64,000 nt of DNA, from assembly GCA_049675585.1 (NCBI GenBank), contig JBAUAJ010000035.1:4198-68197 (forward strand), read 5' to 3'. Below the pieces are notes generated by a model, which saw nothing but the letters and a program-made list of their open reading frames with translations, was not told the DNA's origin and searched no databases. The DNA comes from Thermoplasmata archaeon. Its GTDB lineage: Archaea > Thermoplasmatota > Thermoplasmata > Lutacidiplasmatales > UBA184. Position 1 is the first letter of the stretch. Every line of letters begins with the position of its first letter. Positions 13,289 through 64,000 of the stretch are shown here, in pieces. The translations under genes were made by a program, and so were the position numbers.

Positions 13289-13374
13289 TCTAGGAGAGAC
13301 CTAGTCGAAGGGTCCGCGCCCGCGGCGGAGCGCCCCCACCACGTATTTCTGCCCGCCGGCCTCGAGCTCACGGC

Positions 13375-15777: not shown

Positions 15778-15802
15778 CCGGGGCCCCGCCGGGCGCCACC
15801 AC

Positions 15803-45962: not shown

Positions 45963-46826
45963 CTAGCCCGCCCGCGCGAGCAGCTCGCAGGCGTCGAACA
46001 GCGCTCGAGCGGCCCCCGGGTCTTGCGAGGCGACCGAACCGGACACGACACGACGATCGGAGAAATACCGGCCACTCACGCCGGCGGCCGATGGGTCGGC
46101 GGCGACGAACAGCGCGGTGTCGGCCCCCTGCGCGACGCTCCGCCCCGCCACCCATCCGGCGAACCGAACCGCCCCCGCGAAGAGTCCCCCATTATTCTGC
46201 GCGAATCGAGTTCGGACGAACCCGGGATGCACCGCGTTCACCGTGGGGCCCGCGCTCCCGAACCGCCGCGCGAACTCGCGGGTGAGCAGGATCGAGGCGA
46301 GCTTCGAGCGCCCGTACGCCCCCCAGCCCGAGTAATGTCTCTCCCCCTGTAGGTCCGACAGGTCGAGCCGCCGACCGCGGTGCGCCGCCGAGGCGATGTT
46401 CACGACCCGTCCCGAGCCGCTGGACCGAAGGGACGGCGCGAGGCGTTCCGTGAGGACGAACGGGGCGAGCACGTTGAGGGCGAACGTACGCTCGAGTCCT
46501 TCGGGGGTGACGTCCCGCCGAAAGAAGATCGCTCCCGCGTTGTTGACGAGCAGGTGGATCTTTGGATAGCGGCGAAGGAGCTCGTCGCACAGCGCCCGTT
46601 GGTCGGACTTCAGCGCGAGGTCGGAGACCCCGACGGAATCGACCCTTCGAGAATGGGCCGCTTCGGCGATCTCGCGAGCCGCAGTCGCCGCTCGCTCGGT
46701 CCCCCGCCCGACCACGACGGTAGTCGCTCCTCGGTGGGCCAGCCCAAGAGCTATCGCCCGGCCCAGGCCGGACGTCCCTCCGGTGACGACCGCGACCTGC
46801 CCGATCAACTCATCCGGCGCGCTCAT
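45963..46826 (-). CDS. Short-chain dehydrogenase/reductase
   Basis: VAVVTGGTSGLGRAIA (TGxxxGxG), NNAG and YGRSK (YxxxK). Confidence 0.8.
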   Translation of the reverse strand: MSAPDELIGQVAVVTGGTSGLGRAIALGLAHRGATTVVVGRGTERAATAAREIAEAAHSRRVDSVGVSDLALKSDQRALCDELLRRYPKIHLLVNNAGAIFFRRDVTPEGLERTFALNVLAPFVLTERLAPSLRSSGSGRVVNIASAAHRGRRLDLSDLQGERHYSGWGAYGRSKLASILLTREFARRFGSAGPTVNAVHPGFVRTRFAQNNGGLFAGAVRFAGWVAGRSVAQGADTALFVAADPSAAGVSGRYFSDRRVVSGSVASQDPGAARALFDACELLARAG

Positions 46827-46855
46827 CGAAACTCGTCTCGCCCCGAGGTCGGCTC

Positions 46856-47878: not shown

Positions 47879-48037
47879 TTATGCGCCGGACCTAGCTCCG
47901 GCCGAGTATAAGGCTCCGCACCGCGAGGAGTTCGTGCGGTCCTGCCCCGGGGGGGACCCCTGGACTGAGCAAACGGTCGAGGTCGACCCCGCCGGGCGAG
48001 AGGCCAAACTTATTAGAAACGGCCCCTGCGCGCTCCG

Positions 48038-49432: not shown

Positions 49433-49539
49433 CCGCCGCCCCCGCGACCGATTCCGACCCCGTGGGTAGGGTCCCCCGTAGCTAGATTTCGATCGCCGAT
49501 TGAGTTCGCGTCCGCCGTTTTCTTCATTTACCACATACT

Positions 49540-49554
49540 CATATGCATATTCAT
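49540..49554. promoter_or_regulatory. AT-rich palindrome-containing motif overlapping the vapB start codon (candidate operator/promoter)
   Basis: CATATGCATATTCAT contains the perfect palindrome ATATGCATAT. Its reverse complement recurs at 50904-50918. Confidence 0.4.
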
Positions 49555-49762
49555 GTCATCCCGTAACATCGCCGTGCAGAAGGCCGTGTACGATCTGCTT
49601 CTTCGAGAGAAACGGGGCGGGGAAAGCTTCACGAGCCTGTTTCGGAGGCTGCTCGACCAGCGGGGGGGCCTCGAAGAGATGGCGGGCAGTTGGGGGCGGG
49701 CTTCCACCCGGCGGGACCGGACGGCCCTGCGGGCCCTACGATCGGGGGGCCGCCGAGCGTGA
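49553..49762 (+). CDS. vapB: VapB-type antitoxin (archaeal UPF0330-like)
   Basis: MSSRNIAVQKAVYDLLLREKRGGESFTSLFRRLL matches the archaeal putative-antitoxin pattern (ISEEAYxxLxxxKxxxESFSDVIxRLL) as recalled. Confidence 0.65.
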   Translation: MSSRNIAVQKAVYDLLLREKRGGESFTSLFRRLLDQRGGLEEMAGSWGRASTRRDRTALRALRSGGRRA

Positions 49763-50175
49763 GGGCCCTCGACACGTCGGTGCTCCTGGCGCTGCTCGAA
49801 GGAGATCCCTCCCTACGACAGAGCCTGCGCCACTGGAGAGGAGAGGAGGTCGCTACGACCGAAGCGAACCTCCTGGAGCTCGCCGTCCTCGCCGCGAACG
49901 GGCCACCGAAGACGCGATCTCACCGGCTGGCCGCCCTCGGACGCCTTCGCCGGCGCCTCACCGTGCTCCCGATCGATTCGAGAGCGGTCGAGGAGGCCCA
50001 GCGCCGGCTCGATCGCGGTGCTGCCTACCGCTCCCCCCTCACGCTCGCGATGCTGGCGGCCCTCGAGACGAGCGGCTGCGAGGAGCTTCTGACGGACGAC
50101 CCCCGCCAGTTCGAGGGTAAGTGGCGGTTCAAAGTGTCGAAAGTCGGCAAACAGATACCTAAACATGGTAAGTAA
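49759..50175 (+). CDS. vapC: PIN-domain toxin
   Basis: GTG 49759 overlaps the vapB stop (GTGA). LDTSVLLALLEGD...TEANLLEL...LLTDD are PIN acidic motifs. The last ~17 codons (WRFKVSKVGKQIPKHGK) are Lys-rich and AT-rich. Confidence 0.7.
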   Translation: MRALDTSVLLALLEGDPSLRQSLRHWRGEEVATTEANLLELAVLAANGPPKTRSHRLAALGRLRRRLTVLPIDSRAVEEAQRRLDRGAAYRSPLTLAMLAALETSGCEELLTDDPRQFEGKWRFKVSKVGKQIPKHGK

Positions 50176-51072
50176 CGTCTCAAGCATCCCTTTGGATGAT
50201 TGAAGCAGCAAACATACCTGAAACTGGGCAACTTGCACGAAAACCCCACCCCTCCGGGCCGCGAAGACCCCGAAACCTCGATGTTACGGCGTGGAGGTAG
50301 GCCATAGCGCAATTAGTAACTAATAATACGTTTCAATAGTTCCTAACTGCCAGTATCTGGCGGGGATCCACGACCCCCATTCCGGTCCCCCGCTCGGCGG
50401 TCTCTGACGGCGCAGGCGTATAACACGAGTTATACGAACCGAAAAGGGGGCGGCGAGCTGGGGCTGCCGACCCCCCCATTTCCAACCCAGACCGCTGGAT
50501 CTCGGCTTCGAGCCCCCTATCCGAGGGCAGAAGGCGCCATAAATGACTGTTAGGCACTGTTGATTCGCAACTATAGTTTCTCAGTTAACTAGAAGACCAA
50601 TATCGCCGCGTTCGACCCTATGAGGACCCACCGCGCCCATCGAGTGCGCCTCGGGCCTCCGCGGACTAACGGTCGAGAAAGCCTGGCCGGGGACTGGGCG
50701 GAATCGGGAGCGCCTCGGCAGGGAGGCTCGCGTTCTGCCTGCTTCATACCCCTGAGGTAGATCCGAGTCGGTTCCGCCCGATCGCCCCAGTCCGGTGCGA
50801 GTAACCGAGGGACCCCACCCAGCGGACCGGTCCAGTCTGTGGCCGCCTGATTCGGCGCCCAGCGACACCGCTCAAACCGATCCCTCAATCGTTTACTGAA
50901 CATATGAATATGCATATGTATACTTGCTCGCGTCGCTCTTATCGAACGTCGACCGGATCGAAAACCGAGCCGACATGAAGTCGGGTTCATCCAGGGAGGT
51001 CGAGCGAGCTCCGGTGGGTCGGCCTCTCCCACGAGCACCCCGCTGGCCGGCACGGGCTCCGAGGAGGCTCCG
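50176..51072. other. About 0.9-kb region with no convincing CDS: AT-rich patches alternating with GC-rich, self-complementary segments (candidate structured RNA or element remnant)
   Basis: No + strand ORF of 60 aa or more is listed entirely within it, and the - strand ORFs are Arg/Pro-rich. AT-rich patches at about 50311-50357 and 50538-50604. A 16-bp long-range helix pairs 50691-50708 with 50777-50793. Perfect hairpin CGTATAAC-ACGA-GTTATACG at 50416-50435. Confidence 0.3.
50904..50918. promoter_or_regulatory. Second, inverted copy of the 15-nt AT-rich motif
   Basis: ATGAATATGCATATG is the exact reverse complement of 49540-49554. Confidence 0.4.
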
Positions 51073-54000
51073 TCAGGGAGGTCGGTGGTAAGGGTCGTCC
51101 GTAATCGCCGAGGGGGAAGGATTCTCCGAGGAGCGACGCCGTCGCAACAGGACGACCCCGACGGCGGCACCGATGCCAATCAGGATGCCCAGGCCGATGC
51201 CACCGAAGAGCGGTTCGACCCAAGGATTCTGAGTCGGGAGGGCCTGAGCCGAGAAGGAAACCGCGACGGCCGACCCGCTTCCGACAATCGCGACGGAACC
51301 GAACACGCGCGCCGGGGAATAGGAAGACACTCCGAAGATGGAGTAGGTCGCGGTACCGTTCGCCACCTCGAACACGATGCTCGCCCCGGTGGAGTAGTTA
51401 ACGGTCGACCCAACCCATACGCTCCAATTCGCTCCCACCGGAAGACCCGACTCCGAGAAGGTGAGTGCATAGAGAACTTGCGAGAAGACGAGGGTCACCT
51501 CGATCACCGAGCTCCCCGCGACCAGGACGCTTCCCGTATGCGGCAGCGTCGTCTGATGCCAACCCCCAAGGTCGCCAATCTCGTAGGCGTAGGAGCCGTT
51601 CGGAACCGAGAAATCGACCGTCGGAGCAGTGGCGCTGAGGATTACGCCGCCCAAAGTGACCGTCCAGGAGGTCCCCTCAGGTAGGCCCGACTCGAGGAAT
51701 TCGACCGAGTACGTTACGGCGGTGTACTCGAGGGTAGGTAGGGTAACACCCGCCCCGTGGATCCCCACGGTGCCGGTGGCCGGCAGGGTCGACTGGCGCC
51801 ACCCGGCAACTCCGGAAATCGCATAGGGAAGCGTCCCGTTAGGCACGGAAAGAACGAGTGAATCGGTCCCGCCGGTGGTCGTGAGCGTCTCCTCCGTTCC
51901 CGCGAGGGTGATCCCGAAGGTCAGTCCGGCTGGGAGCCCGGACTCCTTGAATGTGATGCCGTAGGTCACGGCGGTGAAGTCGATCGTTACGAGCACACTC
52001 GTGGCGGCGACGTCCACGGCGCCGCTCGTCACGTTCTGCGAGTACCCCGCAACCCCCGGAATCGTGAACGGAAGTGTGCCGTTCGGCTCCGAGAACCAGA
52101 TGGTAGGCGTGCTCGATGTCTCGCGGACCGTGCCGACCTTGACGGACCAGCTCGTACCGCTCGCGAGGCCCGACTCGATGAACCGGACCGGGAAGGTGCT
52201 CTCGAAGAACTGCAGGTCGACTACATCGCCTATCCCAGAACCGTTGATCGGTTGCGAGTCCCCGTTCACCACGAGCCGGCCCGTGTAGGGCTCGGACGAT
52301 TGGTGCCAACCCGCGATCGGAAGAATCTGATAGAAGTACGAGCCGTTCGCGAGGTCCGTCCAGGTGAGAGTGTCGGTACCTCCGTCGGTGGTAATGCCCT
52401 GCGGAGTTCCCGCCACGAACGCCGAAAATTCAAGCCCCGCCGGGAGCCCGGATTCCGATATCGTTACAAGATATGCGACGGGGAAGAACTGGAGCGTCGG
52501 CTCGAAGAAGTAGTATGAGTTGTTGCTCGTTCCGTTGGCCGAGAGGTTCAACGTTCCGGAGAACGGTAGGGTCGACTGGTAGTATCCGCGGACAGGACTG
52601 ATCGAGTAATTGTAAACTCCGTGCGCCTCGTAGAACACGACCTCCCCGAAACTGCCGTTCCTCAGCAAGCCGTTGAGAGTGACGGACCAACTGGAGTTGA
52701 ACGGCAGCCCTGACTCCTGGAAGACGGCAACAACCTCGACTGAGAAGTTCATCGTAGGGAGCGCCACCGAGGAGCCGTTGACCAGAACCGTCCCGTTGAG
52801 CGGTACCGGAGCTTCCGTCCAGGCAGGGAATGGGACGCCGGATCGTTCGAGGCCGAGAATCGCATACGTGTAACTTCCGTTGAGCTCTAGGAACGTCATC
52901 GACCGCACGGTGGTGCTCAGATTGGTTTTTCCCAGCGAGGCCGACCAGCTCCACCCGGCCGGAACTCCCGATTCGGAGAAAGTTACATTGAAGAACGCGC
53001 CGTACCCGAGCACACTGACCGAGTCGATCTCCGAATCCATCGCGTAGAGGTACTGGTTGGACGGATCGTACTGGATCCCGAACGCGGGCGAAGGAAGCGG
53101 GACCGTCTCAAGAACTTCGGTCGAATTGATGACCGTTAGTCCGGAGTAATTCCCGGCCAACACCAGGTCCCCCGTGGCCGCGTCGAAGGCGGCCGCGTAT
53201 GGTCGGATCGGTATCGTCACGTTGCCTGCTAGGGCCGTCCCCTCGAGGATGGATACACGGGAGACAGAGGAGTTGCCGATGCCGGAGTTTGCCACGTAGA
53301 CCGCCCCGGAAATGGAGTCGAACACCGCCGGTCCTAGACCTGACCCGACTTCGACTGTGGCCACAACTGTGGTCCCGTTGAGCAGGGTGAGGTTTCCCGA
53401 TCCCTGGTCGACGACCACCATGTACCCATCGCTCGGATCGTACGTCAACGAGGTGGGAAAAGCGTCGACCGGGAGGGTCACTGTTCCGACTAGGGAAGTG
53501 CCGTTGATGATCGACACGAGGCTGACGTCCCCGGTCACCGTTGCGTAGACGTCCCCGTCCGCGGCGTCGTACCCGAGAGCATACGGGGCCCGGTTCGCCC
53601 CACCCACCAGCACGGAACCGGCGATGGTGGTGCCGTGGATGACCGTCACGTTTGATCCCCCGTAGTTGGCCACGTACACATCCCCGTCAGCCGGGTCGTA
53701 GAGAATAGACGTAGAGTAGGCCCCCGTCGACAGATTTCCGATGTCTTTCGTTCCGTTGATGATCGTCACGTTGTAGGAGTTCGAATCGTCTACGTAAACG
53801 AACCCATCCTGGGGGTCGAAGACCGCGCCGATCGGCCCCGAACCCACCTGAATTCTCTCGACTAGCGTCGTGTTGTTGAGCAGATGCACTCCGGTGCCCC
53901 CCGAATCCTCGACGTACACTTCTCCGTTCCTCGGGTCCACGAGAGCCGCCGTGGGAAACGAACCAACGGTGATGGTAGCCAGGACTCCGAGCTGACGCTC

Positions 54001-54261
54001 GAAGCCCGCGGGGTGTGCGTGGAGCCCCGGGAGGGACCCGGCCGATAGGATCCCCGCCGCCGTCGGCACCAACGATCTCGGTCCTAGGTTATCCCCTGGA
54101 GTGGCCGCCAGCGCAGCCGAGGGGCCAGCGACTCCCACGGTGGTCGCCTGAGGAGCGGCCCGCACCCCCCCTTGAGATGCGCTGAGCGAGCTGAACAGTA
54201 GGAGAAGGAGCAAGAACACCGATCCGAAAACGCGGCCGATTGGTCGTGCCGGGGTATGCAT
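51073..54261 (-). CDS. Membrane-anchored YVTN beta-propeller protein with about 7-8 FxESGLP modules
   Basis: Signal-like MHTPARPIGRVFGSVFLLLLLLFSSLSASQG. YVTN-like repeats. Modules VTFSESGVPAGWSWSASL, VFQESGLPFNSSWSVTL, ITFKESGLPAGLTFGITL and VEFLESGLPEGTSWTVTL. C-terminal TM GIGLGILIGIGAAVGVVLL. GGAGG lies 8 nt upstream of the ATG. GC3 is visibly lower than in the left-hand paralogs. Confidence 0.75.
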   Translation of the reverse strand: MHTPARPIGRVFGSVFLLLLLLFSSLSASQGGVRAAPQATTVGVAGPSAALAATPGDNLGPRSLVPTAAGILSAGSLPGLHAHPAGFERQLGVLATITVGSFPTAALVDPRNGEVYVEDSGGTGVHLLNNTTLVERIQVGSGPIGAVFDPQDGFVYVDDSNSYNVTIINGTKDIGNLSTGAYSTSILYDPADGDVYVANYGGSNVTVIHGTTIAGSVLVGGANRAPYALGYDAADGDVYATVTGDVSLVSIINGTSLVGTVTLPVDAFPTSLTYDPSDGYMVVVDQGSGNLTLLNGTTVVATVEVGSGLGPAVFDSISGAVYVANSGIGNSSVSRVSILEGTALAGNVTIPIRPYAAAFDAATGDLVLAGNYSGLTVINSTEVLETVPLPSPAFGIQYDPSNQYLYAMDSEIDSVSVLGYGAFFNVTFSESGVPAGWSWSASLGKTNLSTTVRSMTFLELNGSYTYAILGLERSGVPFPAWTEAPVPLNGTVLVNGSSVALPTMNFSVEVVAVFQESGLPFNSSWSVTLNGLLRNGSFGEVVFYEAHGVYNYSISPVRGYYQSTLPFSGTLNLSANGTSNNSYYFFEPTLQFFPVAYLVTISESGLPAGLEFSAFVAGTPQGITTDGGTDTLTWTDLANGSYFYQILPIAGWHQSSEPYTGRLVVNGDSQPINGSGIGDVVDLQFFESTFPVRFIESGLASGTSWSVKVGTVRETSSTPTIWFSEPNGTLPFTIPGVAGYSQNVTSGAVDVAATSVLVTIDFTAVTYGITFKESGLPAGLTFGITLAGTEETLTTTGGTDSLVLSVPNGTLPYAISGVAGWRQSTLPATGTVGIHGAGVTLPTLEYTAVTYSVEFLESGLPEGTSWTVTLGGVILSATAPTVDFSVPNGSYAYEIGDLGGWHQTTLPHTGSVLVAGSSVIEVTLVFSQVLYALTFSESGLPVGANWSVWVGSTVNYSTGASIVFEVANGTATYSIFGVSSYSPARVFGSVAIVGSGSAVAVSFSAQALPTQNPWVEPLFGGIGLGILIGIGAAVGVVLLRRRRSSENPSPSAITDDPYHRPP
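51290..52990 (-). repeat. In-frame tandem FxESGLP-module repeats
   Basis: Protein-level repeats from about residue 425 to 990 of the 1062-aa product, again mixing WSVTL-type and TTDGGTD/GWHQS-type units. Confidence 0.7.
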
Positions 54262-54402
54262 AGGGCCTCCGCGGTCCGATTCCTCGGTAGCGGATGAGCG
54301 CTTCGGCAGCGATCGAAACGTCGCGAAATGCTACCGGGGTGACTTGAATCCTTCCGGGCTCAGCTCCGTCCGGCTCTGATTGCCTTCGACGAAACGGTTC
54401 GA

Positions 54403-54756
54403 TCAGAGCCCGTGGCACTGGAAGTGCGAGGCGAGTCGCCGAAGGATTGTTGGAGACTCGTAGTCTGGGCCGAAATCCGCCAAGCGCTGCTTGGAGGATC
54501 GCGGCGACCAGTAGAGGGAGTCCTCGCAATGGACCCCGATTCCGACCGCGGACACGAACTCCCGAACCGCCCGCCCTTCCGATACCAGGGCGTCGGCGGC
54601 CCGTTGCGTAGTGTCGAGCATCTGTTCCCGGTTCCCGGGTGCCTCGGACGCAAGGACTTCCTCGTACAGTCGATGGACGCACCACGGACGATTCGGAGTC
54701 CCGTCCAGAGCGCGCTCAATCCGTGTCATCAGGGTCGCGGCGTCGGAACCGGGCAT
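54403..54756 (-). CDS. Hypothetical soluble protein
   Basis: 117 aa with protein-like composition, unlike the overlapping + strand ORF. Co-oriented with the flanking surface-protein genes. Confidence 0.45.
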   Translation of the reverse strand: MPGSDAATLMTRIERALDGTPNRPWCVHRLYEEVLASEAPGNREQMLDTTQRAADALVSEGRAVREFVSAVGIGVHCEDSLYWSPRSSKQRLADFGPDYESPTILRRLASHFQCHGL

Positions 54757-54876
54757 CGGCTACGAAGAATGGGGGCGACCCCACGATAATACCATCGGGA
54801 GGCCACCTCGAAGGGTTGCTTTCCTGGGGGGGTCGACCCGCCCCAGGCACTCATGGACCGCAGCCGCGGTCCAACA

Positions 54877-55485
54877 CTAGGGAATCTCCGCCCCTTCGTA
54901 GACCAGCTCGAACGCACCGGTACTCGGTGCTGAGCCATCGGACCCCGGAGCGTATCCGACCAGGATCGCGTCGTTGTAAGATTGTCCCGGCTGAAGCGTG
55001 ATGAAATTGATCGAGATGTCCGCGGCGGTTCCGCATGGGGTGGGAGACCCGTTGACACAGACGAGGCCGCTCGCGGCGATCCCCGACAGCGTGACGACAT
55101 CGATGCAGTTCGTCTGGCCGGCATTGCATATTCCGTTCAGCCCCGCGAACAAGAGACCCGCCGTGACATTGACCGGCGCCTCCCCCGTGTTCTGGATCTG
55201 AAGCGCCGCGTCGCAGTACTCTCCAAAGTAGATGTCCGAGATCTCGAGATTGACCGCGGTCTGAGCCGCGTTCAATCCGGTGAAACCGATCGACCCCGGA
55301 CCGGGTGCCCCGGTGCCTGTGTACGTGCACCCATGGCCCAAGAACGCTTCAATCTGCAAGTTGACCGATCCGGCGCTTACCGACCCTGAGACGGTATCGA
55401 CGGAAGTGAACGCGGCAAATCCAACTCCGGTCATCATCACCGCGGCGACCGTCGCCAAGACTCCGAAAACCCATCTGCTCGTCAC
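54877..55485 (-). CDS. Secreted protein with a TasA/camelysin-like (SipW-cognate type) N-terminal signal region
   Basis: From GTG 55485 the sequence reads VTSRWVFGVLATVAAVMMTGVGFAAFTSVDTVSGSVSAGSVNLQIE. This resembles the xAxF(S/T)(D/S)...AG(T/S)(L/V)xL pattern that follows the TM segment in TasA-family proteins. The listed start 55611 adds 42 aa of doubtful coding quality. Confidence 0.5.
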   Translation of the reverse strand: MTSRWVFGVLATVAAVMMTGVGFAAFTSVDTVSGSVSAGSVNLQIEAFLGHGCTYTGTGAPGPGSIGFTGLNAAQTAVNLEISDIYFGEYCDAALQIQNTGEAPVNVTAGLLFAGLNGICNAGQTNCIDVVTLSGIAASGLVCVNGSPTPCGTAADISINFITLQPGQSYNDAILVGYAPGSDGSAPSTGAFELVYEGAEIP

Positions 55486-55621
55486 GTGCGCCTCTGGAGA
55501 AATCTCTCCCCCGTGACACTCAGAACACGGTTCTCGTACAACGAGATTCGGAACTGTTGAGACGAGTGGTCTGGAGCAGTCGGTCCAATACTCCCGGCGG
55601 GGCGGGATCACTCCAATTTTC

Positions 55622-56179
55622 TCATCCGGGCCGATCTTCGAGGATGGGTTCCTTTCGGTAGACCCACCACATTCCGAGGCCTCCCCCGACTACTAGGAGG
55701 AGCCCGACCACGAGGATGCTTAGAGATTCATTCCAAACCAGCCGGCCCGAATCGACGGCCAGGAAAGTGAGCATCCCTGCACCAAGGACCAGAACGGCCG
55801 GGGTGTACGCTCTTTCACGCCGGAACGGTTCCGTAGCATCCGGCTCTGATTCACCCTGCGGTGCATATGGCGGGATCGGGCCCGTGCGGCCCCCTACCGA
55901 GTGCCGCAGTCGACGGCTGCCGTTCGACCGTTGCGATTTCGCCTCCGATTCGACCGCCCGGCGCGGTTTGGATAGGACCTCCCATCCCGTTTCCGCGCCG
56001 AACCTTCCTCGAACTGGCTCGACCCTGATCGAATCCGGGGAGGACACTCCGGTTTCGAAGGGTATCTCCGCGTCAGGTTCGGAAAACGGTCCGCTCACAG
56101 TGTGCGGAGCGAATGCCTCCAATTTATAGACGCGGAACCAGGGGAATTGCCACCTCCCGACGGGGCGGTTGAGATGCAA
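55622..56179 (-). CDS. Hypothetical protein with two C-terminal TM segments
   Basis: 185 aa. AVLVLGAGMLTFLAV and ILVVGLLLVVGGGLGMWWV. No family recognised. Confidence 0.4.
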   Translation of the reverse strand: MHLNRPVGRWQFPWFRVYKLEAFAPHTVSGPFSEPDAEIPFETGVSSPDSIRVEPVRGRFGAETGWEVLSKPRRAVESEAKSQRSNGSRRLRHSVGGRTGPIPPYAPQGESEPDATEPFRRERAYTPAVLVLGAGMLTFLAVDSGRLVWNESLSILVVGLLLVVGGGLGMWWVYRKEPILEDRPG

Positions 56180-56257
56180 GTAAAAGCTGCCCAGAGGGAT
56201 CTAAAAATTAGAGGGGCCCGCGCCGATAGCGCGAGCCCACGGAATCGATTCGACGTT

Positions 56258-57697
56258 TCAGGGCTTGGTGGTCGGCCCCTCAACATTCGAGGGCGCCGAA
56301 GGCGGAGAGGCCGGGGGACGGGCTCGGCCTGACGAGCGGCGCCAGAACAGAACGCCGCCGATCACTACGACCGCGGCAACCGCCGCGACCGCCACGAAAA
56401 GTAGCGGGAAGCCGCCGCCGTTCGAGGGCGAGGCAGTGATCGACTGGTACTGGGCCAGCGCGACGTTGACGGGCTCCGGCCCGGCCGTTACGTGGACCGT
56501 GGGGGAGAGCTCCCCGGGTTCGCTCGAGGGGAGAGAAGTGTTGCCGCCCTCGCCGACGCCGATGAAGCCTGACCCCGCACGGTAGTACGCGGACTCGGAG
56601 GACGCGTTCAGCCCGTTCGAAGAGGCCGTTTCGCGGACCGCGGGGATGGGCGCCGCCCCGTGCGCGATCGCGAGGGATGTCAGGCTGGAGATCCCACCGA
56701 ACAGATTGAGCGGGACGATGACCCAGCCGTCTTCCGCCGAGTAGTTCCCCGTAGAGAACGTGAGGTCGATGATCTGGGCCGTTACGACCGTTGGCGGGGC
56801 CGTGTAGTTGTCGTAGAGGGTGATCGGCCCGAGGTCAGTCCCGTTCAGCCCGAGGGTTCCCGAAGGGCTGGTCGCCCCGTGGTACCAGTGCGACACCGTC
56901 TCGGGGGGCATGCCGGGCTTGCTCAAGGTGAACGTTGAGCCGTTCGAGTAGGAGCCGTGGGCCACGTACGCTGCGCTCGAGTTCCACAAATCGCCCGCCG
57001 CGGGGTCCATCGGGACCAGGGAGAGGGGGCTGGCGAACGAGATCGAGGACGTTTCGGAGCCGCCGACATCGAAGGAGGCGCTGACCGATTCTGATTTCAC
57101 GTCCGACAGCGGAATGTGCGCGGCGTAAGAGCCGCTGAAGTTCAACGCGGCTTTCGACCAGGAGTTCATGATCGCCCACGACGGCACGCTACCGGTCGGT
57201 CCGGCGCTCGCGTTCGTCTGATCGACCGTGCTATTCGTGATGTTGGTGTAGCCGTTCGAGGACTCCGATCCCGAAACCGAGACGTCGAACGAGGTTACTT
57301 GACAGGGAATCGTTCCGGTGCCGTTGGTGCAGGTCGAGATCTTGATCGAGGCCGAGATACCAATAGCCGCCTGAACCTCGATCTGGACTTGGGTCGCGGA
57401 GATGTTCGTGAGCGTGTAGATGACCGCCCAGGTCACAGAGTAGTGCCAGCTCAGGCTCAGGTTACCCACGGGCGTGGCGTCCGGCGCAAAGCAGGTGGCG
57501 TTCGAACAGCTGAAGCTCGAAGAAACCGACCCGCCGAATGCTCGCTGAACCGGAGCTCCGGAGGTATCTGTAATCGTTCGTGCCGGATGGATTGCGGCCG
57601 CCGCCCCGACACCGGCTTGGGCAAAGCCAAGGGTCAGCATTCCGACGACCAGGAGGACCAAGGCGACAGTCTGGCACTTACTGTACAACGGCTTCAC
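56258..57697 (-). CDS. Sequon-rich surface protein with a signal peptide and a C-terminal TM anchor
   Basis: MKPLYSKCQTVALVLLVVGMLTLGFAQAGVGA. Many N-x-S/T sequons. C-terminal GGGFPLLFVAVAAVAAVVVIGGVLFWRRSSGR plus a Pro-rich tail. Confidence 0.6.
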   Translation of the reverse strand: MKPLYSKCQTVALVLLVVGMLTLGFAQAGVGAAAAIHPARTITDTSGAPVQRAFGGSVSSSFSCSNATCFAPDATPVGNLSLSWHYSVTWAVIYTLTNISATQVQIEVQAAIGISASIKISTCTNGTGTIPCQVTSFDVSVSGSESSNGYTNITNSTVDQTNASAGPTGSVPSWAIMNSWSKAALNFSGSYAAHIPLSDVKSESVSASFDVGGSETSSISFASPLSLVPMDPAAGDLWNSSAAYVAHGSYSNGSTFTLSKPGMPPETVSHWYHGATSPSGTLGLNGTDLGPITLYDNYTAPPTVVTAQIIDLTFSTGNYSAEDGWVIVPLNLFGGISSLTSLAIAHGAAPIPAVRETASSNGLNASSESAYYRAGSGFIGVGEGGNTSLPSSEPGELSPTVHVTAGPEPVNVALAQYQSITASPSNGGGFPLLFVAVAAVAAVVVIGGVLFWRRSSGRARPPASPPSAPSNVEGPTTKP

Positions 57698-58138
57698 GTG
57701 AGGTACGCCCCGAAATTGAATGTCGGGATGGGGGTAAAGAACCTATGGACGGCGGTATGCGGAAGTTTCGCACGGTTGCGTTGACCTAGCCCGCAACCTG
57801 TGAACCCAAAATATCGACCTGTAGATTCGCGTCCTATTCACCCGCAGGTAGGTACAATCGATGTGGAACACTTGAGTAGAGTTCGACCGGGAAACCGACT
57901 CAATAGGGGCCGTTTTCGACTGAAATCAAAGTCGGCCAAGGGAAAGGCACTGAGGATTCGAATCTTTGTGGGTCTAGGTTGTATTCGGGGCCGCAACAGA
58001 CGGAGGCGATCCACCTGCTTTCCGGAAGAGAGAACCTTACCATGTCGCCGACAGTAGCGGGTCGCATCTGGAGGTTCAGGATGCCCGGGGTCGGGTAGAA
58101 TCCGGCTCGCCCTTTAGAAAGGCCGCCTGCCAGGTTCC

Positions 58139-58221
58139 AGTTATAATCTAACTCAGCCGTTTGCGCACGTAAAAAATATCGACAATGGGTTCTTAAATAT
58201 AACCGGAGTAAACAACTCCGG
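58139..58221 (+). promoter_or_regulatory. AT-rich TATA-like boxes and a perfect hairpin upstream of the giant ORF
   Basis: AGTTATAATCTAA (58139-58151), GTAAAAAATATC (58169-58180) and CTTAAATATAA (58192-58202). Hairpin CCGGAG-TAAACAA-CTCCGG at 58203-58221. Confidence 0.35.
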
Positions 58222-58439
58222 ATTCCCCCAGAGACCCACATCTCGGGGTCGGTCCAGGAAGGCAGGTCATGGCTGACCAGTGTGCGACTCGAGGGAACGC
58301 ATCCGATGACCAACAGTTCGAGTACGTGTACGAAGAATCCAGTACCAACAAGCAACGGTTCAGGTCATCAGATCGGGAATGTCAGCAGCAGAAATCTCAC
58401 TTCCGCACTGCGGGGTGGCCCGTTCGACCATCGCGGTGG

Positions 58440-61400
58440 ATGTCGGGAAGGACCGCTAGTTTGGTCGTGTTTTGCATATTTCTGCTCATTTCTACTGCGC
58501 TGGTGCCGAACGCAGCGGCCTCCGGAGGTGGAGGATCGGGTGGAGGTGGCTCATTTGAAGTGTCAAATAACACAACGGGCCCCATTTTTTACCCTTATTC
58601 CATTCCCGGATCGCTCTTCCCTCTGCCAACGAGCCTCACCCTCTTCTCTCAGGCGAGCCAAACTGACCAAAATCATGGCTCGTCGAACGGCTCAGTCTCC
58701 TCTGTCGCCGCCGGGGTCGCTTCCACTCCGTTAGGTGCAGATGTATCTAGCTTCGCCGTCATTGTGGCCCTGACGAACTCCTCGAGCGCCTCCGAGACTG
58801 GCGTCCTCGTCTTCTCGACCTCCACTTACAGTGCGCAGGACGCGACCCAGATTGTTGATTCGGGGTCATGTGGGCCAAATTGCGCTGACACACCCATTAC
58901 TTGGTCGCCATGGGTCCGAATTGCAAGTTACACTCATCCAATCACGAGTGAGGGAATCGCTTCATCGGGCACTTCTCTAGTCGCGGCTGCAACCTCAAGT
59001 GGCATTACTTACCTCTACAATTGGTCGGGAGTCGCTGGGAACTGGGCAAGCTTTGGACCTACCATTGCGGGCCGATTCGCTTCCATTGCAATGAATTCTC
59101 AAGAAGTGGTCGTTGCGTCGGTATCTTCCGATTCCGTCGAGCTGACAACGATCTCCTCAAGTGGGGCCCTGATCGGCCAATCCATGATATCACCCTCGGG
59201 AGAAGGAGCAACGGGCATCCTCAGCGCGGGCGTAGCCCTTACCGCGTACTACGCAACCTATCTTGAATCAGTGGCGTTTTCCGTCTCCGGGCTAGACAAG
59301 GTTGAGTTCTCTGATAGTACTACCGGAACTGGGTTCAGCTACCCGGTCCCCATCGCAAATTTCTCCGTGAGCGCCTTGGCTACCCCTATCTCCGAATTCG
59401 GAAGAGCGTCCTACGTTGACGCCCACGGAATCCCGGGCCAGCTCGCGTTAACTGCCGTGGGAAACCAGCTATTTCTACTGTACACCACGAACCAGTCCGG
59501 CCAAACCATCCCGCTTACTGAGTCGAGCGGATCTAACGGCAGTTCTTGGCACGGGCCGTACATGAACGGCCCTCTCAACGGAACGGCTCTTAACCCGGCC
59601 GTTACAATAGGGCCAACCGGACTTGTCTACGCGGCTTGGCAGAACCCCGATTACGGTCTGGGAGCCGTGGAGGTGGCGACCTACTTTTCCAACGGGATGC
59701 CCCTGATTGCTCCAGAGACGCTAGCGCCCTCGTCCGGTAACTGGAGCTCACCCACCGCGGGGCCAGCTATCTCCGTTGACGGGCTCGCACGCCCCCTGGT
59801 GCTTTGGCCGGCGTGGTCGATGAACTTGACGGGTTCTATATCGTATACGGGGGCCTACCTGGATCCTAGAGATGCGCTGGAATTGCTTGAGAACTCGACT
59901 GTGGTTTCCCTAGGCTCTGCCGATCTCGTAGGAGGCTCCAAAACCGGGTCGACGGCGCTTTCCTCACTCGCGACCAACGTCACCCGAGAAACGAGCCGAG
60001 CCGAGGCGAATCTTACTTCCGTTGGGCTCTGCAACGCTCAGCGAGCCACCGCACTCTTTCTCTATCAGAATCTGACCCACGTTCCCCTTTCGGTCGAATC
60101 CGACTCAGGGACAACTTGTTCGAGTCGTTTCGACCCTAATCTTGCAGCCTCACAAGTGTCAGAATCACAGGGACAAGACTCGCCGAACACTTACATGGCC
60201 GTATACCTAGACTGGGCTCTCGAGGGTGAGGGGGTCACAGTTACGGTTTCTCCTCTGAGCCTGGTGGCGCAATTTAGTCCGTATACTGAGGTCACTCCTG
60301 CCACGACCATTCCGAATCCCGTCTCGCACACCGAGACTGTTTCCTCGAAAACTGTATCTGCAACCGTGACGCCGTCACCCTACAGCCCGACGTCGTACGA
60401 ACTCGGAGTCTCGGATTCACTCCCCACTTGGACAAGCTTCTCGTCTGCCCGGTGCTCAATGTCGGGAGGGGGCTGGGGGGTTGTAGTCATCAGCAAGACG
60501 ACTTCTGTTACTAGCACCTGGGCTGACGTCTCGATCAACAACGGCACAAATCACAACATCTCGGGAACTACCGCCTACCCGTCCGTATGGGTTTACAATC
60601 TACCCGCATATCGATCATTCTCTTGGACCGAACGGTTCGGTGCACGAACCGGTGAGGTGGAGACAACCACTGACTCATGTGATCACTCTACAACAACCCA
60701 GACTATTTCCCCAGTGACACTGGGACCGTCTTCGATCACTCAGTTTGTGCTGACCGGATCCTTCGCGACGACACTCTCCATCACGTATGTCGGGAATTTC
60801 CTCACTGCATCGTACAACGGATTACACACTGAGGCACGAATCTCGACTGGCTATGGGATGACATTGCCGTCCACGGCACAAGAGACACTATCGAATTCAA
60901 CGGGTGTCCAGTACTGGAATTCAACCACATTCGGAACCAGCCAGTTCAATGAGTTTCCCAAATACTCACCTGCCGGTGTCGGATACACTTTCCGAATCAC
61001 GAGCCTGAGCCGTCCCGGGTCAAACAGCCCGGCAGGATCTCCTGCCTTTGCATACAGCGTGGCCGGTGTTAGCCCGGCGGAATCCTCGCGGGCCACCTGC
61101 GGTTTCACATTGACGAGGAATCTACCCAATGTTTCAAGCCCGTCCACAGGGCCGTTTTGGAACACTGAAAGTACCTCCATCGACGCGTCTTGGTACTCCA
61201 ACCAGAGCGCATCAGGGTACATCACCTACCACGCGATTGGGTCTCCTATTTCTACGACCATCTCGGGAATCACGCCGATCAGCGCTGGGCCGAATCGATG
61301 GAACTACACAGTTGAGTTGCACGGTCTTCAGCCCTGGGTCTCCTACGCTGCAAACCTCGGAGTTTCTTGGACGCAGGGTTGCCTAACGAACCAGGATGGG

Positions 61401-64000
61401 GTGACAACCCAGGTCGATTTCGGAGGGAGCGACCCTCCATTTGTTCCCGAGCCCTCCGCAGGATCTGCTCCCAGCATGGACAAGAATTGGGCTTCCGAGC
61501 AGGACCTCAGTTACAATTCATTGACTCGTGCCGGCGGTGGAGTCGAAATCAGCTGGAACATTCCGATATCCGGACCTTTCGTAAGCGGCAGTGTGAAAAT
61601 TTGGAATGCTACTCAGGCATTCTCCTACTCACTTAATTCGACCACTATAGAAGGGACTAAGGGAAGTGGTCTGATAGATCTCTTCCCGACGCTAACTTCG
61701 AATCATAAGTACTCGTTCACTGTTACAGCGGTATACGACAAACCCTTCTACTGTCCCCCTCCGGGTGGCTGTGTGAAACCCTCCAGCATCACTTCCTCAA
61801 CCAAGAAATTTACCTACCACTTCGATCAGAGCAAGGACGGACTGACCAATGCGGAGAAGCAAACAGGTTGGTACGTACCCCTCGCTTCGGGTCCTGACCT
61901 CGTTACTCCCAGCCCGTCGAGCTTTTCAACGAATGGGTTGGCTAACGATTACCTGGAGGACGTCTATGGCCTCAATCCGAATACAGTCGACTCCGCTGGG
62001 AGCGGAATGCTCGATCTGTGGAACCTAACCTTTGCTCTTGGCACAAATTCCACCAATCCAGGGGTACCTGAACCGAGACTCAACGGTGTGGTCGATAAGA
62101 GTTTCTTCGCGCTGTCTTCAGAGGAAGGCACGCGATTCGACCCGTTTTCCGGAAAACCCTCACCAAACGACACGACTTGGCCGGGAACCCCCATTAAGAC
62201 AGGCACGAACGACCAGGGCATCTCGGACATCCTGTGCGTCAGGTCTCATTGTTTGGCCAATTCGTCTTATTCTGCTGAAGTACTTTGGTCTCGAACCGCC
62301 CTACTAAAACTTCTCAATACGACAGGAATAGCCGGACCCGAAGGGGCAGCCTCCAATGGAGGCTCCCTGCGTGGGATTCTCGGTACGTACGGAACGCAAC
62401 GGACTCTAACTCTCTGGGGCAAACTTTCGTGGGGTGCGGATCCATACGTGGTGTCGACACCTGGAGATGGAATCCCGGACGGTGCGAGTATAGATCCGGC
62501 ACATGAACTCGGTCTCGAAACATATTTTGAGAGAGCTCCTCCACAACCGCCAGCTCTCGGAGGCTACGGTATTTTGCTGAACCCGAACGACACTTCCGGG
62601 GGATGCGGAAATCTTCCCGACGGCTCAGGTATCGCCGTACGGCCATCCATACCTGACGCTGTGGTAAGTGGTAGGGTCGGGCTCGATAACTACACCGCAC
62701 AATTCACTGCAGGTGGCTCAGGTTGTCCCGTAAGTGGAGAGTCCTACATTACAACTCTTCCGGTTAACCAAGAGCTCATCTCTGAGCCGGTTTCCCTTGG
62801 ACTGGTCGCTAATATTTCCACGAGCCGCACGCCAGAACTGGAGAGTTTGGCGATCAACGGTTGTCGAACCGAAGTGAACCTGACTGTCAACATGCTCGCT
62901 CCAGCTCCAGTCAGCCAGTCGGGGACTGCGTACTACTCTTATTGGGGAAATTCAAACGGTCAGTGCTCGGGGAGTATGGGGGCAAGGACTGCGATAGACC
63001 TCGGGATTCGCCTTGTTTCTGTAGGGGTCAAATCGCCCACATACCTTTGGTTGCCCGATGGTAATCAGACCCTCACCCAACTTCCGGCGGGCTTGCAACA
63101 CTTCGTTGGCGAGCAGGATTTCGTGGAGGTCGAGGTGAACTACAACTATCCCGGGTGCGGTTTCGCCTTCTTCGCATCGAACGAATGCAGAGGCGTGGCG
63201 AGCAGCGATATTCCTTTTCCAGAGTCGCCCAGAGGCACTTATAATGTAACGTTCGCAGCAGGAGTTACCAATCTTCTCATTCCGAGAGTTGGATTCTTCG
63301 CCTCCGATTTTGGTCAAGCGATCTTCAAGGACGGGTCAATCAGGTACACTGGCCCTAACACACTTCCCATCCTCGGCTCCGGCGGCGTTACCCCTCCGAA
63401 TTTTGGTGGAGCGAATGGTATGCGAAACCTTGCTTGCTATTGGCAGAACCGAACTATCGAACCAGCAAGTGGCGGGGCACTCTGCAGCACTGAATTGGGA
63501 GTGGGGTCGAAATCTCCCGCAATAGTTTCAGTCCTCACTGCGACGCAGAGTGTATCAGGCAACACTGGGGGATTGACAAGCGGCGCTACGGTCGAGCCCG
63601 CGTCAGCCGCGGGTGCATCCGTCCAAGCCATAGTGACCTTGACACTCAATCTATCGGGGAACAATTTCAAGGACGCAGACCTCCTTCTGGCCTCGCTCCT
63701 TGATAACTCGACCGGCGGAGTGAACGGATCGTTCGAGAATATCACGGGTCAGACCGCCACCCTAGGATTCTCGAGCGCCGTTCTATCCACTCTAGCAAAT
63801 AATGCCGAGGTTAGTGATGGGATTTGGGGCGTTCCCGTAAGCCGTGCCACGCCTCCTCAGCAATCAAAAGGAGCATTGGAATCTGCTTGGAACACGGTCA
63901 GCGGGATCGGAACGTTCGTCGTCAAGTCAGAATCGGTTATAGTCGGTTACATATGGTCTGCAACGAAGGCAGGATTGGACTTCTTAGGCGAAATCGGGAA
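58440..64000 (+). CDS. Giant secreted S/T/N-rich protein, 3'-truncated by the window end (over 1,853 codons). Not in the supplied ORF track
   Basis: I translated frame 0 by hand line by line and found no stop from 58269 to 64000. ATG 58440 is followed by MSGRTASLVVFCIFLLISTALVPNAAASGGGGSGGGGS (signal-like). An alternative start is ATG 58269. Two FN3-like modules, TSP3-like acidic motifs and about 30 or more N-x-S/T sequons by eye. GC3 is near 50%, against about 85-90% in the rest of the window (eye estimates). Confidence 0.8.
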   Translation, partial: MSGRTASLVVFCIFLLISTALVPNAAASGGGGSGGGGSFEVSNNTTGPIFYPYSIPGSLFPLPTSLTLFSQASQTDQNHGSSNGSVSSVAAGVASTPLGADVSSFAVIVALTNSSSASETGVLVFSTSTYSAQDATQIVDSGSCGPNCADTPITWSPWVRIASYTHPITSEGIASSGTSLVAAATSSGITYLYNWSGVAGNWASFGPTIAGRFASIAMNSQEVVVASVSSDSVELTTISSSGALIGQSMISPSGEGATGILSAGVALTAYYATYLESVAFSVSGLDKVEFSDSTTGTGFSYPVPIANFSVSALATPISEFGRASYVDAHGIPGQLALTAVGNQLFLLYTTNQSGQTIPLTESSGSNGSSWHGPYMNGPLNGTALNPAVTIGPTGLVYAAWQNPDYGLGAVEVATYFSNGMPLIAPETLAPSSGNWSSPTAGPAISVDGLARPLVLWPAWSMNLTGSISYTGAYLDPRDALELLENSTVVSLGSADLVGGSKTGSTALSSLATNVTRETSRAEANLTSVGLCNAQRATALFLYQNLTHVPLSVESDSGTTCSSRFDPNLAASQVSESQGQDSPNTYMAVYLDWALEGEGVTVTVSPLSLVAQFSPYTEVTPATTIPNPVSHTETVSSKTVSATVTPSPYSPTSYELGVSDSLPTWTSFSSARCSMSGGGWGVVVISKTTSVTSTWADVSINNGTNHNISGTTAYPSVWVYNLPAYRSFSWTERFGARTGEVETTTDSCDHSTTTQTISPVTLGPSSITQFVLTGSFATTLSITYVGNFLTASYNGLHTEARISTGYGMTLPSTAQETLSNSTGVQYWNSTTFGTSQFNEFPKYSPAGVGYTFRITSLSRPGSNSPAGSPAFAYSVAGVSPAESSRATCGFTLTRNLPNVSSPSTGPFWNTESTSIDASWYSNQSASGYITYHAIGSPISTTISGITPISAGPNRWNYTVELHGLQPWVSYAANLGVSWTQGCLTNQDGVTTQVDFGGSDPPFVPEPSAGSAPSMDKNWASEQDLSYNSLTRAGGGVEISWNIPISGPFVSGSVKIWNATQAFSYSLNSTTIEGTKGSGLIDLFPTLTSNHKYSFTVTAVYDKPFYCPPPGGCVKPSSITSSTKKFTYHFDQSKDGLTNAEKQTGWYVPLASGPDLVTPSPSSFSTNGLANDYLEDVYGLNPNTVDSAGSGMLDLWNLTFALGTNSTNPGVPEPRLNGVVDKSFFALSSEEGTRFDPFSGKPSPNDTTWPGTPIKTGTNDQGISDILCVRSHCLANSSYSAEVLWSRTALLKLLNTTGIAGPEGAASNGGSLRGILGTYGTQRTLTLWGKLSWGADPYVVSTPGDGIPDGASIDPAHELGLETYFERAPPQPPALGGYGILLNPNDTSGGCGNLPDGSGIAVRPSIPDAVVSGRVGLDNYTAQFTAGGSGCPVSGESYITTLPVNQELISEPVSLGLVANISTSRTPELESLAINGCRTEVNLTVNMLAPAPVSQSGTAYYSYWGNSNGQCSGSMGARTAIDLGIRLVSVGVKSPTYLWLPDGNQTLTQLPAGLQHFVGEQDFVEVEVNYNYPGCGFAFFASNECRGVASSDIPFPESPRGTYNVTFAAGVTNLLIPRVGFFASDFGQAIFKDGSIRYTGPNTLPILGSGGVTPPNFGGANGMRNLACYWQNRTIEPASGGALCSTELGVGSKSPAIVSVLTATQSVSGNTGGLTSGATVEPASAAGASVQAIVTLTLNLSGNNFKDADLLLASLLDNSTGGVNGSFENITGQTATLGFSSAVLSTLANNAEVSDGIWGVPVSRATPPQQSKGALESAWNTVSGIGTFVVKSESVIVGYIWSATKAGLDFLGEIG

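Follow-up and report, generated by a model that had tools for sequence, protein, structure and literature searches.

At the right-hand end of a 64,000-nt stretch of Thermoplasmata archaeon DNA (GenBank assembly GCA_049675585.1, contig JBAUAJ010000035.1, positions 4,198-68,197 of the forward strand; hereafter the window) lies most of a gene for a giant surface protein, predicted to be glycosylated, which we read as the body of a module organized like a polymorphic toxin system. The window contains codons 1-1853 of 2,166 (58440..64000, plus strand), recognized by an open frame, by homologues and by an identical contig from another assembly. This reading rests on a small partner gene downstream, a fixed breakpoint in front of a variable C-terminal tail, the co-variation of tail and partner, the exchange of tails between bodies and the occurrence of orphan cassettes, which together amount to an organization like that of polymorphic toxins, here with entirely new parts. 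By analogy with the bacterial systems, the module may work as a toxin/immunity pair adapted to single-membrane archaea, a proposal to which we assign a probability of about 0.5. The giant glycoprotein would make contact between neighboring cells, its membrane-active tail would harm or mark a neighbor devoid of the cognate small protein, and this partner, with its termini inside the cell and a hairpin in the membrane, would neutralize or recognize the matching tail inside the bilayer. A first-pass annotation of the window had proposed a recently acquired giant adhesin or envelope protein; the giant envelope protein stands, whereas the term adhesin misses the tail, the partner and the orphan cassettes.

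The open frame is a real gene. It is free of stop codons from 58212, directly after a TAA at 58209-58211, to base 64000, and thus begins upstream of the position 58269 that had been reported; the count of 5,561 nt from ATG 58440 (1,853 codons plus 2 nt) was confirmed. The frame was missing from the list of open reading frames (ORFs) because it runs off the end of the window, and it continues for 1,929 codons without a stop, against a maximum of 195 in any of the other five frames of the 58-64 kb region. A Logan contig of 22,485 bp, SRR28061163_15184 (locus L044 in our set), which also carries the 479-aa gene found at 56258-57697 (-) in the window, is 100% identical to window positions 46258-64000 over 17,743 nt with zero mismatches or gaps and extends 3.6 kb past the window end. 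It allowed the stop codon and right-hand boundary to be located: the complete gene has 2,166 codons (L044 2644-9144 (-)), of which the window holds the first 86%, and it terminates at window-equivalent positions 64938-64940, 940 nt past the window. Weak codon-position periodicity (G+C content of 0.52/0.56/0.58 at the three positions) and an abrupt shift in composition might have suggested that the frame is open by chance in DNA of foreign or chimeric origin, or that the assembly was wrongly joined at 57.7-58.4 kb. The independent Logan assembly, however, spans this junction identically, which makes an assembly chimera there very unlikely, and it is identical across both edges of the compositional island described below; the length of the frame relative to its five competitors and full-length homologues at 32-46% identity argue the same way. 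The frameshift, the chimera and the lack of homology support that the first-pass annotation had itself named as fatal to its prediction are effectively excluded by the identical contig, the full-length homologues and about 200 homologous clusters, and on these sequence grounds we count the artefact as already refuted, its remaining probability being close to nil.

Searches of the giant ORF against Pfam, NCBIfam and PDB sequences returned nothing at E ≤ 1, and a search against PHROGs nothing at E ≤ 0.01, in agreement with the earlier description of a giant, sequon-rich envelope protein, predicted to be exported, that falls in no curated family. Its designation as a protein of unknown family holds in this sense but not in that of an orphan, about 200 clusters making up the tight, Thermoplasmata-specific family of which it is a member. 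A large protein database provided ten full-length homologues (1,946-2,408 aa, 32-46% identity), none with a Pfam domain, and an exhaustive HMMER search of 1.84 billion representatives with a 236-position core profile (A2) retrieved 201 clusters at 50% identity, 144 of them at E ≤ 1e-30 and nearly all 1,900-2,750 aa long; extra searches with the full and core alignments yielded fragments only. GTDB species representatives contributed 40 loci, 39 of which are titled Thermoplasmata or a Thermoplasmata order (one Ca. Lutacidiplasmatales), with two copies in several metagenome-assembled genomes (MAGs) and four in one. Locus L042, titled "bacterium", and protein P0014, named Nitrososphaerales and encoded on a short 1.1 kb contig, are more likely mis-binned than genuine members from outside the Thermoplasmata. 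The neighborhoods of the relatives are chromosomal and not conserved (e.g. GatDE, COX1, a tRNA synthetase, transporters). Gene calls in these loci are simple ORF calls, and several copies are split into 2-6 consecutive in-frame pieces (L017, L038, L005, L022, L028 and L041, the latter in six pieces at 10010-16071); these may be pseudogenes or long-read assembly frameshift errors (MFD bins) and, if they reflect real decay, would fit rapid module turnover. No paper describing the family was found in a literature search that did not extend to a 2019 mBio survey of archaeal polymorphic toxins; distant members may have been listed in it, although its data set is older than these MAGs.

Foremost among the features of the family is its C-terminal tail. 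In the homologues, the last ~300 residues contain 3-8 strongly hydrophobic segments, and in the window protein the tail occupies residues ~1872-2166 (window-equivalent ~64053-64937), with 5-7 such segments between residues 1887 and 2166. Across 107 representatives, tails are 257-351 aa long (median 280), contain only 2.4% lysine plus arginine (K+R) and share a hydropathy plan in which an amphipathic helix and a loop precede a hydrophobic block of double length, another loop and four more hydrophobic helices, for a modal estimate of six helices. Small-xxx-small motifs (1,511 vs 1,226 ± 33) and GxxxG motifs (377 vs 303 ± 15) are enriched, and 71 of the 107 tails fall into one cluster at E < 1e-10. 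Searches of Pfam, NCBIfam, PHROGs and PDB sequences with 13 tails and 22 partners gave nothing above threshold.

The boundary between body and tail is abrupt. Seven pairs of sequences that are 82-97% identical over the body (positions 1300-1700 of the hidden Markov model (HMM) built on family alignment A1) drop to about 20% identity at HMM position ~1770-1785, relatives with 90-97% identity along the body falling to 14-23%. All pairs share the position of the step, some 50 residues past a WNxVSG motif. Three different tails sit on one body in the L014 main gene, L024 and the L014 orphan; L037/L038 and L017/L039 are paralogues inside one MAG; and the same step separates the L008 main gene from its own orphan and P0003 from P0005. 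In the nucleotide sequences, homology extends in tracts of 0.5-5.3 kb (76-93% identity) that break off 258-339 codons short of the stop codon, and those shared by main genes and orphans (0.5-1.6 kb) end at the tail boundary. Conversely, some tails are closer than the bodies that carry them (70% vs 33% identity for P0030/P0091, 62% vs 33% and 55% vs 30% for others). The last conserved element before the breakpoint is a pre-tail helix (AWNTVSG...WSAT...) at 63885..64000 (+) in the window, whose ORF ends at HMM position 1756, about 20 codons short of the tail junction.

Directly downstream of the giant gene, 21 nt past its stop, L044 encodes a 158-aa partner (window-equivalent 64962-65438; L044 2146-2622 (-)) made up of two hydrophobic helices (residues 21-39 and 47-73) followed by a basic C-terminal domain. 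A comparable ORF with two transmembrane (TM) helices is found on the same strand, anywhere from overlapping the giant gene to ~60 nt past its stop, in nearly all loci that include the 3' end: two HMMs (s1 and s2) detected it in 31 loci, and inspection added at least 7 more (2-TM ORFs of 160-270 aa). All partner types align as one family with two TM helices, a beta-rich region containing a near-invariant Trp and a C-terminal helix, LTxEAxxAIL..A..HGL. K+R make up 14% and 13% of the two termini but 4.6% of the hairpin, a positive-inside pattern which suggests that both termini are cytoplasmic, with the hairpin within the membrane. The topology fits that of bacterial two-TM proteins with a pleckstrin homology (bPH) domain, bPH_6 being matched weakly in 2 of 22 members (E 0.01, below the cut-off), and a profile search of the PDB with the partner returned nothing.

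Partner identity follows tail identity across 31 modules (Spearman 0.38; Mantel p = 2e-4, a value reached by 0 of 5,000 permutations), and neither partner (rho -0.03, p = 0.64) nor tail (p = 0.60) is correlated with the body. We note that a clean mapping of s1 and s2 partner types onto tail types was considered and dropped, as the window's own pair does not fit it. Tails and partners also occur detached from a body. In several loci, orphan 3' fragments begin at HMM positions 1270-1615 and reach the end of the gene; those of L014, L034 and L008 and the first L025 orphan have their own 2-TM ORF downstream, and the other two L025 orphans have no small TM ORF within 300 nt. The tail of one L025 orphan matches that of the full-length protein P0144 at 85% identity over 290 aa; the body of P0144 shares only 36% identity with the L025 main gene. 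Solo extra partner genes are found in L011, L022, L024, L036 and L038. At the level of sequence, these comparisons reveal a body and a tail evolving separately, with recombination at a fixed point after the WNxVSG helix swapping the tail together with the downstream gene.

These findings bear on a simpler interpretation, in which the protein is an ordinary structural envelope glycoprotein of the glycocalyx or S-layer type with a polytopic C-terminal anchor, the small protein assists its assembly or anchoring, and tail variation reflects weak constraint on lipid-facing helices along with occasional gene conversion between paralogues, with no role in conflict. The predicted Sec signal, N-glycosylation potential (40 sequons against 22.5 in shuffled sequences, see below), Ser/Thr/Gly richness, beta-sandwich ectodomain and C-terminal membrane attachment are all reminiscent of archaeal S-layer and surface glycoproteins; six hydrophobic helices resemble a stable anchor, the neighborhoods are chromosomal and of a housekeeping nature, and amino-acid composition might account for part of the lower G+C content. 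Weak constraint, however, does not produce a sharp identity step at one fixed column in seven independent pairs, and leaves unexplained the tails that are closer than their bodies, the orphan tail-plus-partner cassettes and a partner that follows the tail but not the body. Known S-layer anchors, moreover, are either one C-terminal helix or a lipid anchor of the PGF-CTERM/archaeosortase kind, not 5-7 hydrophobic segments. Finally, the family has no Pfam S-layer match and, in contrast to a core envelope component, is small, patchy, recombining, endowed with a cognate partner and present in one to at least four copies per MAG. We therefore regard a purely structural role as unlikely.

The arrangement is closest to that of the CDI (contact-dependent growth inhibition) and Rhs systems of bacteria, where a conserved delivery body is followed by a junction, a variable C-terminus (CT) and a cognate downstream gene, and where mobile orphans become fused elsewhere (Poole et al. 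2011, PMC3150448; Zhang et al. 2012, PMC3482391). Polymorphic toxin systems were defined in the latter study (PMC3482391), and orphan CT/immunity modules are known from both CDI and Rhs loci (PMC3150448). As in CdiA-CT/CdiI and Rhs-CT/RhsI, the first gene of the archaeal module is very large and its product exported (here 2,166 aa, with a predicted signal and an AAA|S site); the family body is conserved up to a fixed junction, where it gives way abruptly to a variable C-terminal module; a small gene, predicted here to confer immunity, lies directly downstream and co-varies with that module; orphan cassettes of a C-terminal fragment and a small gene keep upstream homology (L008, L014, L025, L034); an orphan tail is fused to a full-length gene elsewhere (L025 orphan/P0144); and genomes may harbor several systems of atypical composition. 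The parts themselves are different. The family displays no homology to known stalk, trafficking, pre-toxin, toxin or immunity domains, RHS/YD, FHA, LXG, WXG, PVC, PT-VENN and PT-HINT domains all being absent from Pfam and NCBIfam searches at E ≤ 1, with no PDB sequence match; its tails form one family of about six hydrophobic helices where bacterial systems deploy unrelated, mostly enzymatic toxins (nucleases, deaminases, peptidases); its host is a single-membrane archaeon without known delivery machinery; and its partner has two TM helices and a domain predicted to be cytoplasmic. Pore-forming colicins and ionophoric toxins of the CdiA-CT(EC93) type also have a homologous family of helical, membrane-inserting C-terminal domains, each countered within the membrane by its own small polytopic immunity protein, encoded next to it. 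Colicin pore domains, however, are soluble in water and form bundles of 10 helices with one hydrophobic hairpin, whereas the tails described here comprise about six strongly hydrophobic helices with almost no charge and have no sequence or Pfam similarity to them.

Several observations weigh against a toxin/immunity function. The tails are one homologous, hydrophobic, polytopic family and not assorted soluble enzymatic toxins, with no Pfam toxin domain among them, and a domain of six helices has more the appearance of an anchor inserted during translation than of a toxin that could be delivered. No trafficking, stalk, pre-toxin or protease domain was recognized in Pfam or NCBIfam (E ≤ 1), and a delivery route for the tail is not evident. 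Co-variation of partner and tail is only moderate (rho 0.38), and the window's own tail resembles tails with s1-type partners although the C-terminus of its partner looks s2-type. Its locus shows no orphan cassette in the 2.1 kb visible downstream, and an AlphaFold2 (AF2) model of P0001 residues 1041-2137 consisted of long helices at a mean predicted local distance difference test (pLDDT) score of 45 and was left out of the fold search. Toxicity, secretion, cleavage and binding are put forward here as predictions.

The single homologous tail family and its extreme hydrophobicity favor either an anchor, as discussed above, or a non-toxic system of identity or kin recognition in which tail and partner would act as a lock-and-key label gating adhesion, membrane exchange or fusion between like cells. 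Functional parallels exist in Proteus IdsD/IdsE, Myxococcus TraA and Dictyostelium TgrB1/C1. In Proteus mirabilis, IdsD and IdsE are encoded by adjacent genes, and their variable membrane-embedded regions set cognate binding and thereby strain-specific self/non-self discrimination; IdsD is nevertheless a protein of ~1,000 aa delivered by a type VI secretion system, with no giant glycosylated ectodomain and no homology to the family. Tails that are homologous, length-constrained (257-351 aa) and hypervariable are what allelic specificity determinants look like, the partner co-varies with them, both variable parts are membrane-embedded, and a large FN3/propeller ectodomain is suited to contact. 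Orphan cassettes and surplus solo partners, on the other hand, are more typical of toxin/immunity arsenals and lead us to favor that function over a pure identity label; recognition would also have to take place inside one membrane, as the extracellular part of the partner is just a short loop. On balance, a label devoid of toxicity seems rather improbable, albeit less so than a structural role.

Cassette exchange could also be driven by viruses, if the giant protein served archaeal viruses or vesicles as a receptor, or barred their entry, and tail swaps helped to evade infection. Orphan fragments are reminiscent of the silent cassettes of antigenic-variation loci, giant exposed glycoproteins are plausible virus receptors, and the N-terminal ~250 positions of the family also vary by insertion. 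Yet it is the membrane-embedded tail that is swapped while the exposed ectodomain stays 90-97% identical, and a co-varying, cytoplasm-facing partner would be needless for receptor escape. With no relatives in IMG/VR contigs and no PHROG matches either, we consider this explanation very unlikely.

The giant gene and its partner stand out from the remainder of the window by their composition. G+C content falls from ~0.67 to 0.55 across the last 6 kb, and third-position G+C content (GC3) is, as the first-pass annotation had pointed out, lower in the giant ORF (0.58 in its window part) than in all other gene-like ORFs of the window (0.65-0.93, three ORFs within the island excluded). The complete gene has a G+C content of 0.550 and a GC3 of 0.58, and its partner of 0.539 and 0.57, respectively; amino-acid composition accounts for part of the lower values at first and second positions but not for the lower GC3. 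The left edge of this low-G+C island lies in a spacer at 57698..58439 (+), where G+C content falls after the 479-aa gene (GC3 0.82), and G+C content is again at or above 0.65 within ~0.5 kb beyond the partner, at DUF2004 and zinc alcohol dehydrogenase genes. Both edges are sharp, and the ~8.3 kb island contains the spacer, the giant gene and the partner only, which fits acquisition as one unit; gene and partner thus look laterally acquired together. Depressed GC3 nevertheless recurs in about a third of family members (median offset from flanking genes -0.05, down to -0.23, and negative in 26 of 35 loci) and is therefore partly a family habit, compatible with frequent lateral movement; the window gene, at about -0.26, is the most extreme. 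Of the earlier proposal of a recent acquisition, the foreign composition is upheld, both edges of the island being visible with the contig extension; the low GC3 is in part shared by the family. The nearest known body is that of P0024, at only 48% identity, and the nearest tail that of P0100, at 27.5%; the simplest reading is that the donor was a lower-G+C Thermoplasmata lineage or a circulating cassette pool. A viral or mobile-element origin was considered and rejected, there being no IMG/VR relatives, PHROG matches, tRNA or flanking direct repeats; annotated flanking genes gave no integrase match, although no search aimed at integrases was made.

Within the spacer, which contains no Rfam family, tandem repeat or tRNA, an AT-rich patch at ~58170-58205, AAAAAATATCGACAATGGGTTCTTAAATATAACC, could contain an archaeal TATA box; RNA elements and tandem repeats sought across 57-64 kb were not found. 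Three small ORFs in the island, at 57900-58355 (-), 60851-61225 (-) and 63437-63745 (-), with GC3 values of 0.58-0.62, are probably spurious. The first of these (151 aa, GC3 0.58) is antisense to the spacer and overlaps the alternative start ATG 58269; it had no Pfam or PHROG match, and gene calling on the Logan contig passed it over. Ahead of the island, G+C content is mildly low (0.61-0.64 vs 0.66-0.72) for ~9 kb (~49000-57700), a stretch that includes several genes with no Pfam match, a 1,062-aa FxESGLP protein and a PIN-domain gene (called on L044) and that may be an older variable region.

The ectodomain, sequon-rich and about 1,800 aa long, comprises a head resembling a propeller, an array of FN3-like domains, an acidic core that is conserved and more beta domains. 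The protein begins with what had been described as a signal-like N-terminus, MSGRTASLVVFCIFLLISTALVPNAAAS, followed by a GGGGSGGGGS linker, both of which were recovered in our analysis. Residues 1-29 form the sole strongly hydrophobic segment of the window part (hydropathy 2.31), with a charged n-region, an 18-residue hydrophobic core and PNAAA|S ahead of the Gly/Ser linker, and the pattern of hydrophobic then small residues is kept in homologues. We accordingly assign a Sec-type signal peptide (residues 1-28; predicted cleavage) and linker (residues 29-38) to 58440..58553 (+). A topology of the YhgE/Pip, EsaA or FtsX type, with one TM helix, a huge loop and then several TM helices, was considered and abandoned, since Pfam lends it no support and the segment at the N-terminus has the look of a signal that is cleaved off. 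The 40 N-x-S/T sequons in the ectodomain, against 22.5 ± 4.0 in composition-matched shuffles, agree with the 30 or more first reported.

An AF2 model of residues 1-1100 (11-sequence multiple sequence alignment, mean pLDDT 55.7) was confident at residues ~630-980 (pLDDT 70-89, all beta), moderate for strands at 89-260 (~60-85) and poor elsewhere. The beta-rich N-terminal region (residues ~89-475; 58704..59864 (+)) is a probable beta-propeller on the basis of this model, a Foldseek search and an Asp-box-like motif. The propeller with Asp boxes foreseen from the sequence is partly supported by one weak Foldseek match in the PDB, acylaminoacyl-peptidase (2hu8_A, E 7.7e-4), and a motif, SGSNGSSW (residues 363-370, nt 59526-59549), whose S363, G367 and W370 are invariant in alignment A1; it is weakened by the occurrence of a single such motif in place of repeated S-x-D-x-G-x-T-W and by the absence of any Pfam BNR match. 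An array of FN3/Ig-like beta-sandwiches follows (residues ~628-1100; 60321..61739 (+)). Its best structural matches, obtained with residues 630-980, are tandem FN3 arrays (anosmin-1, fibronectin FN10-12, RPTP-sigma; E 1e-6 to 1e-5, probability 0.99-1.0), so that the FN3-like modules proposed earlier hold at the level of the fold, with no Pfam fn3 match.

The most conserved part of the family, at 61821..62483 (+), contains many invariant columns and has the highest column identity family-wide (0.40-0.60); it supplied the A2 profile with which the family was retrieved. It includes FDQSKDGLTNAEKQTGW at residues 1128-1144 (family form DSSGDGLTDxEKxxGW), STNGL..DY.E...GLNPNTVD..GSGMLDLWN at residues 1163-1195 (family form STNGLxxDYxEKExGLNPxTxDTxxSxMLDxWN) and WGKLSWGADP..STPGDGIPDG at residues 1326-1348 (family form WGKLSWGA(D/N)P...ST..DG..DG). 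Acidic motifs of this kind had been likened to thrombospondin type 3 repeats, a comparison that we do not support, since this conserved core has no Pfam match (no TSP_3 at E ≤ 1) and presents just 2-3 isolated D-x-x-DG-like motifs where tandem calcium-binding repeats (DxDxDGxxDxxD) would be expected. In all homologues, WGKLSWGA(D/N)P (residues 1326-1335; 62415-62444) is an invariant motif that holds an Asp-Pro or Asn-Pro bond, always in the same place. In other proteins, bonds of this type are labile to acid or cleave themselves, as in the FrpC self-processing module and the NPTH motif of FlhB/YscU, and by analogy the motif could be an autoprocessing site freeing the C-terminal third of the protein. 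The L008 orphan fragment begins just upstream of it (HMM position 1270). The distal ectodomain beyond (residues ~1349-1815; 62484..63884 (+)) is the part kept by orphan 3' fragments of relatives and hence the likely homology tract for cassette exchange.

Elsewhere, the ectodomain appears modular in light of insertions specific to subfamilies. Proteins P0002-P0006 carry between the DSSGDGLT and STNGL motifs a ~250-aa Gly-rich insert (…GGSGGGA…GGGGGGS…), which is missing from the window protein and looks like a beta-helix or beta-solenoid, and members from L029, L032, L034 and L040 have a 350-580 aa insertion following the first ~200 residues.

The giant ORF is also devoid, as first noted, of the FxE[ST]GLP motif that occurs 15 times, at ~230-500 nt spacing, in three other large ORFs of the window: 92-5515 (-), 11147-13288 (+) and 51073-54261 (-). 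The products of the latter are secreted-looking, have pro-kumamolisin or NHL/propeller-type matches and a normal GC3 (0.77-0.84), and are a separate family of repeat-module surface proteins. The window further encodes thermopsins, a sedolisin-like protease, an M1 peptidase, an acetyl-CoA synthetase and glycogen-type enzymes. Two ~1,150-aa thermopsin-domain proteins (6780-10247 (+) and 20669-24193 (+)) and the 1,807-aa pro-kumamolisin-type protein encoded at 92-5515 (-) make up an unusually rich set of giant secreted acid proteases, which would be consistent with acidophilic, peptide-scavenging Thermoplasmata. A GT4 glycosyltransferase gene at 40512-41966 (+) adjoins a GH57 gene and most likely belongs to glycogen-type metabolism; its product also matches PF20706, "GT4 in conflict systems" (E 3e-19).

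The nearest archaeal parallel to the giant gene and its partner, by analogy of organization, is the VARTIG module of Thermococcales, a large Ig-domain surface protein with a recombining hypervariable C-terminal Ig domain, whose authors liken its organization to that of polymorphic toxin systems and report that its function is unknown and that no toxin was identified (Makarova et al. 2021, PMC8416519). Both modules are archaeal and lineage-specific, place a large Ig-like surface protein first, generate a hypervariable C-terminus by recombination and have particular membrane proteins downstream of particular variants. Compared by description, they differ in the variable part, which is a C-terminal Ig domain in VARTIG (arCOG07710 protein) and an all-helical polytopic module here, as well as in the archaeal class, in the single, near-universal 2-TM partner and in the clear orphan cassettes of the present family.

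Combining these elements, we tentatively propose, as a possibility we hold short of probable, that the family constitutes a lineage-specific system of contact-dependent discrimination in soil, peat and sediment Thermoplasmata, convergent with the logic of polymorphic toxins and with specificity read in the bilayer. The glycoprotein would join two single-membrane cells, and the hypervariable six-helix module would then be exposed to, or exchanged into, the membrane of the neighbor, to be tolerated only where that neighbor makes the matching two-helix partner; alleles would be traded as tail-plus-partner cassettes. If this is true, the system would have arisen within the archaea and would have no relative among bacterial ones. 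Polymorphic toxins are generally absent from archaea other than certain methanoarchaea and haloarchaea, in which they are embedded in bacterial radiations (PMC3482391), and predicted archaeal systems are not yet characterized by experiment (PMC8416519). Experimentally grounded knowledge of how archaea compete with or recognize one another is very thin. By its likeness to polymorphic toxin systems, the module probably lets these archaea fight or recognize their neighbors, and the family would add to this field a self-contained, apparently archaeal-born module in widespread uncultured soil and peat Thermoplasmata, with testable specificity determinants (tail and partner) and a mapped recombination junction. 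It further suggests what function some of the largest genes labeled "hypothetical" in these genomes may have, and offers an explanation for their foreign-looking composition and frequent truncation at contig ends.

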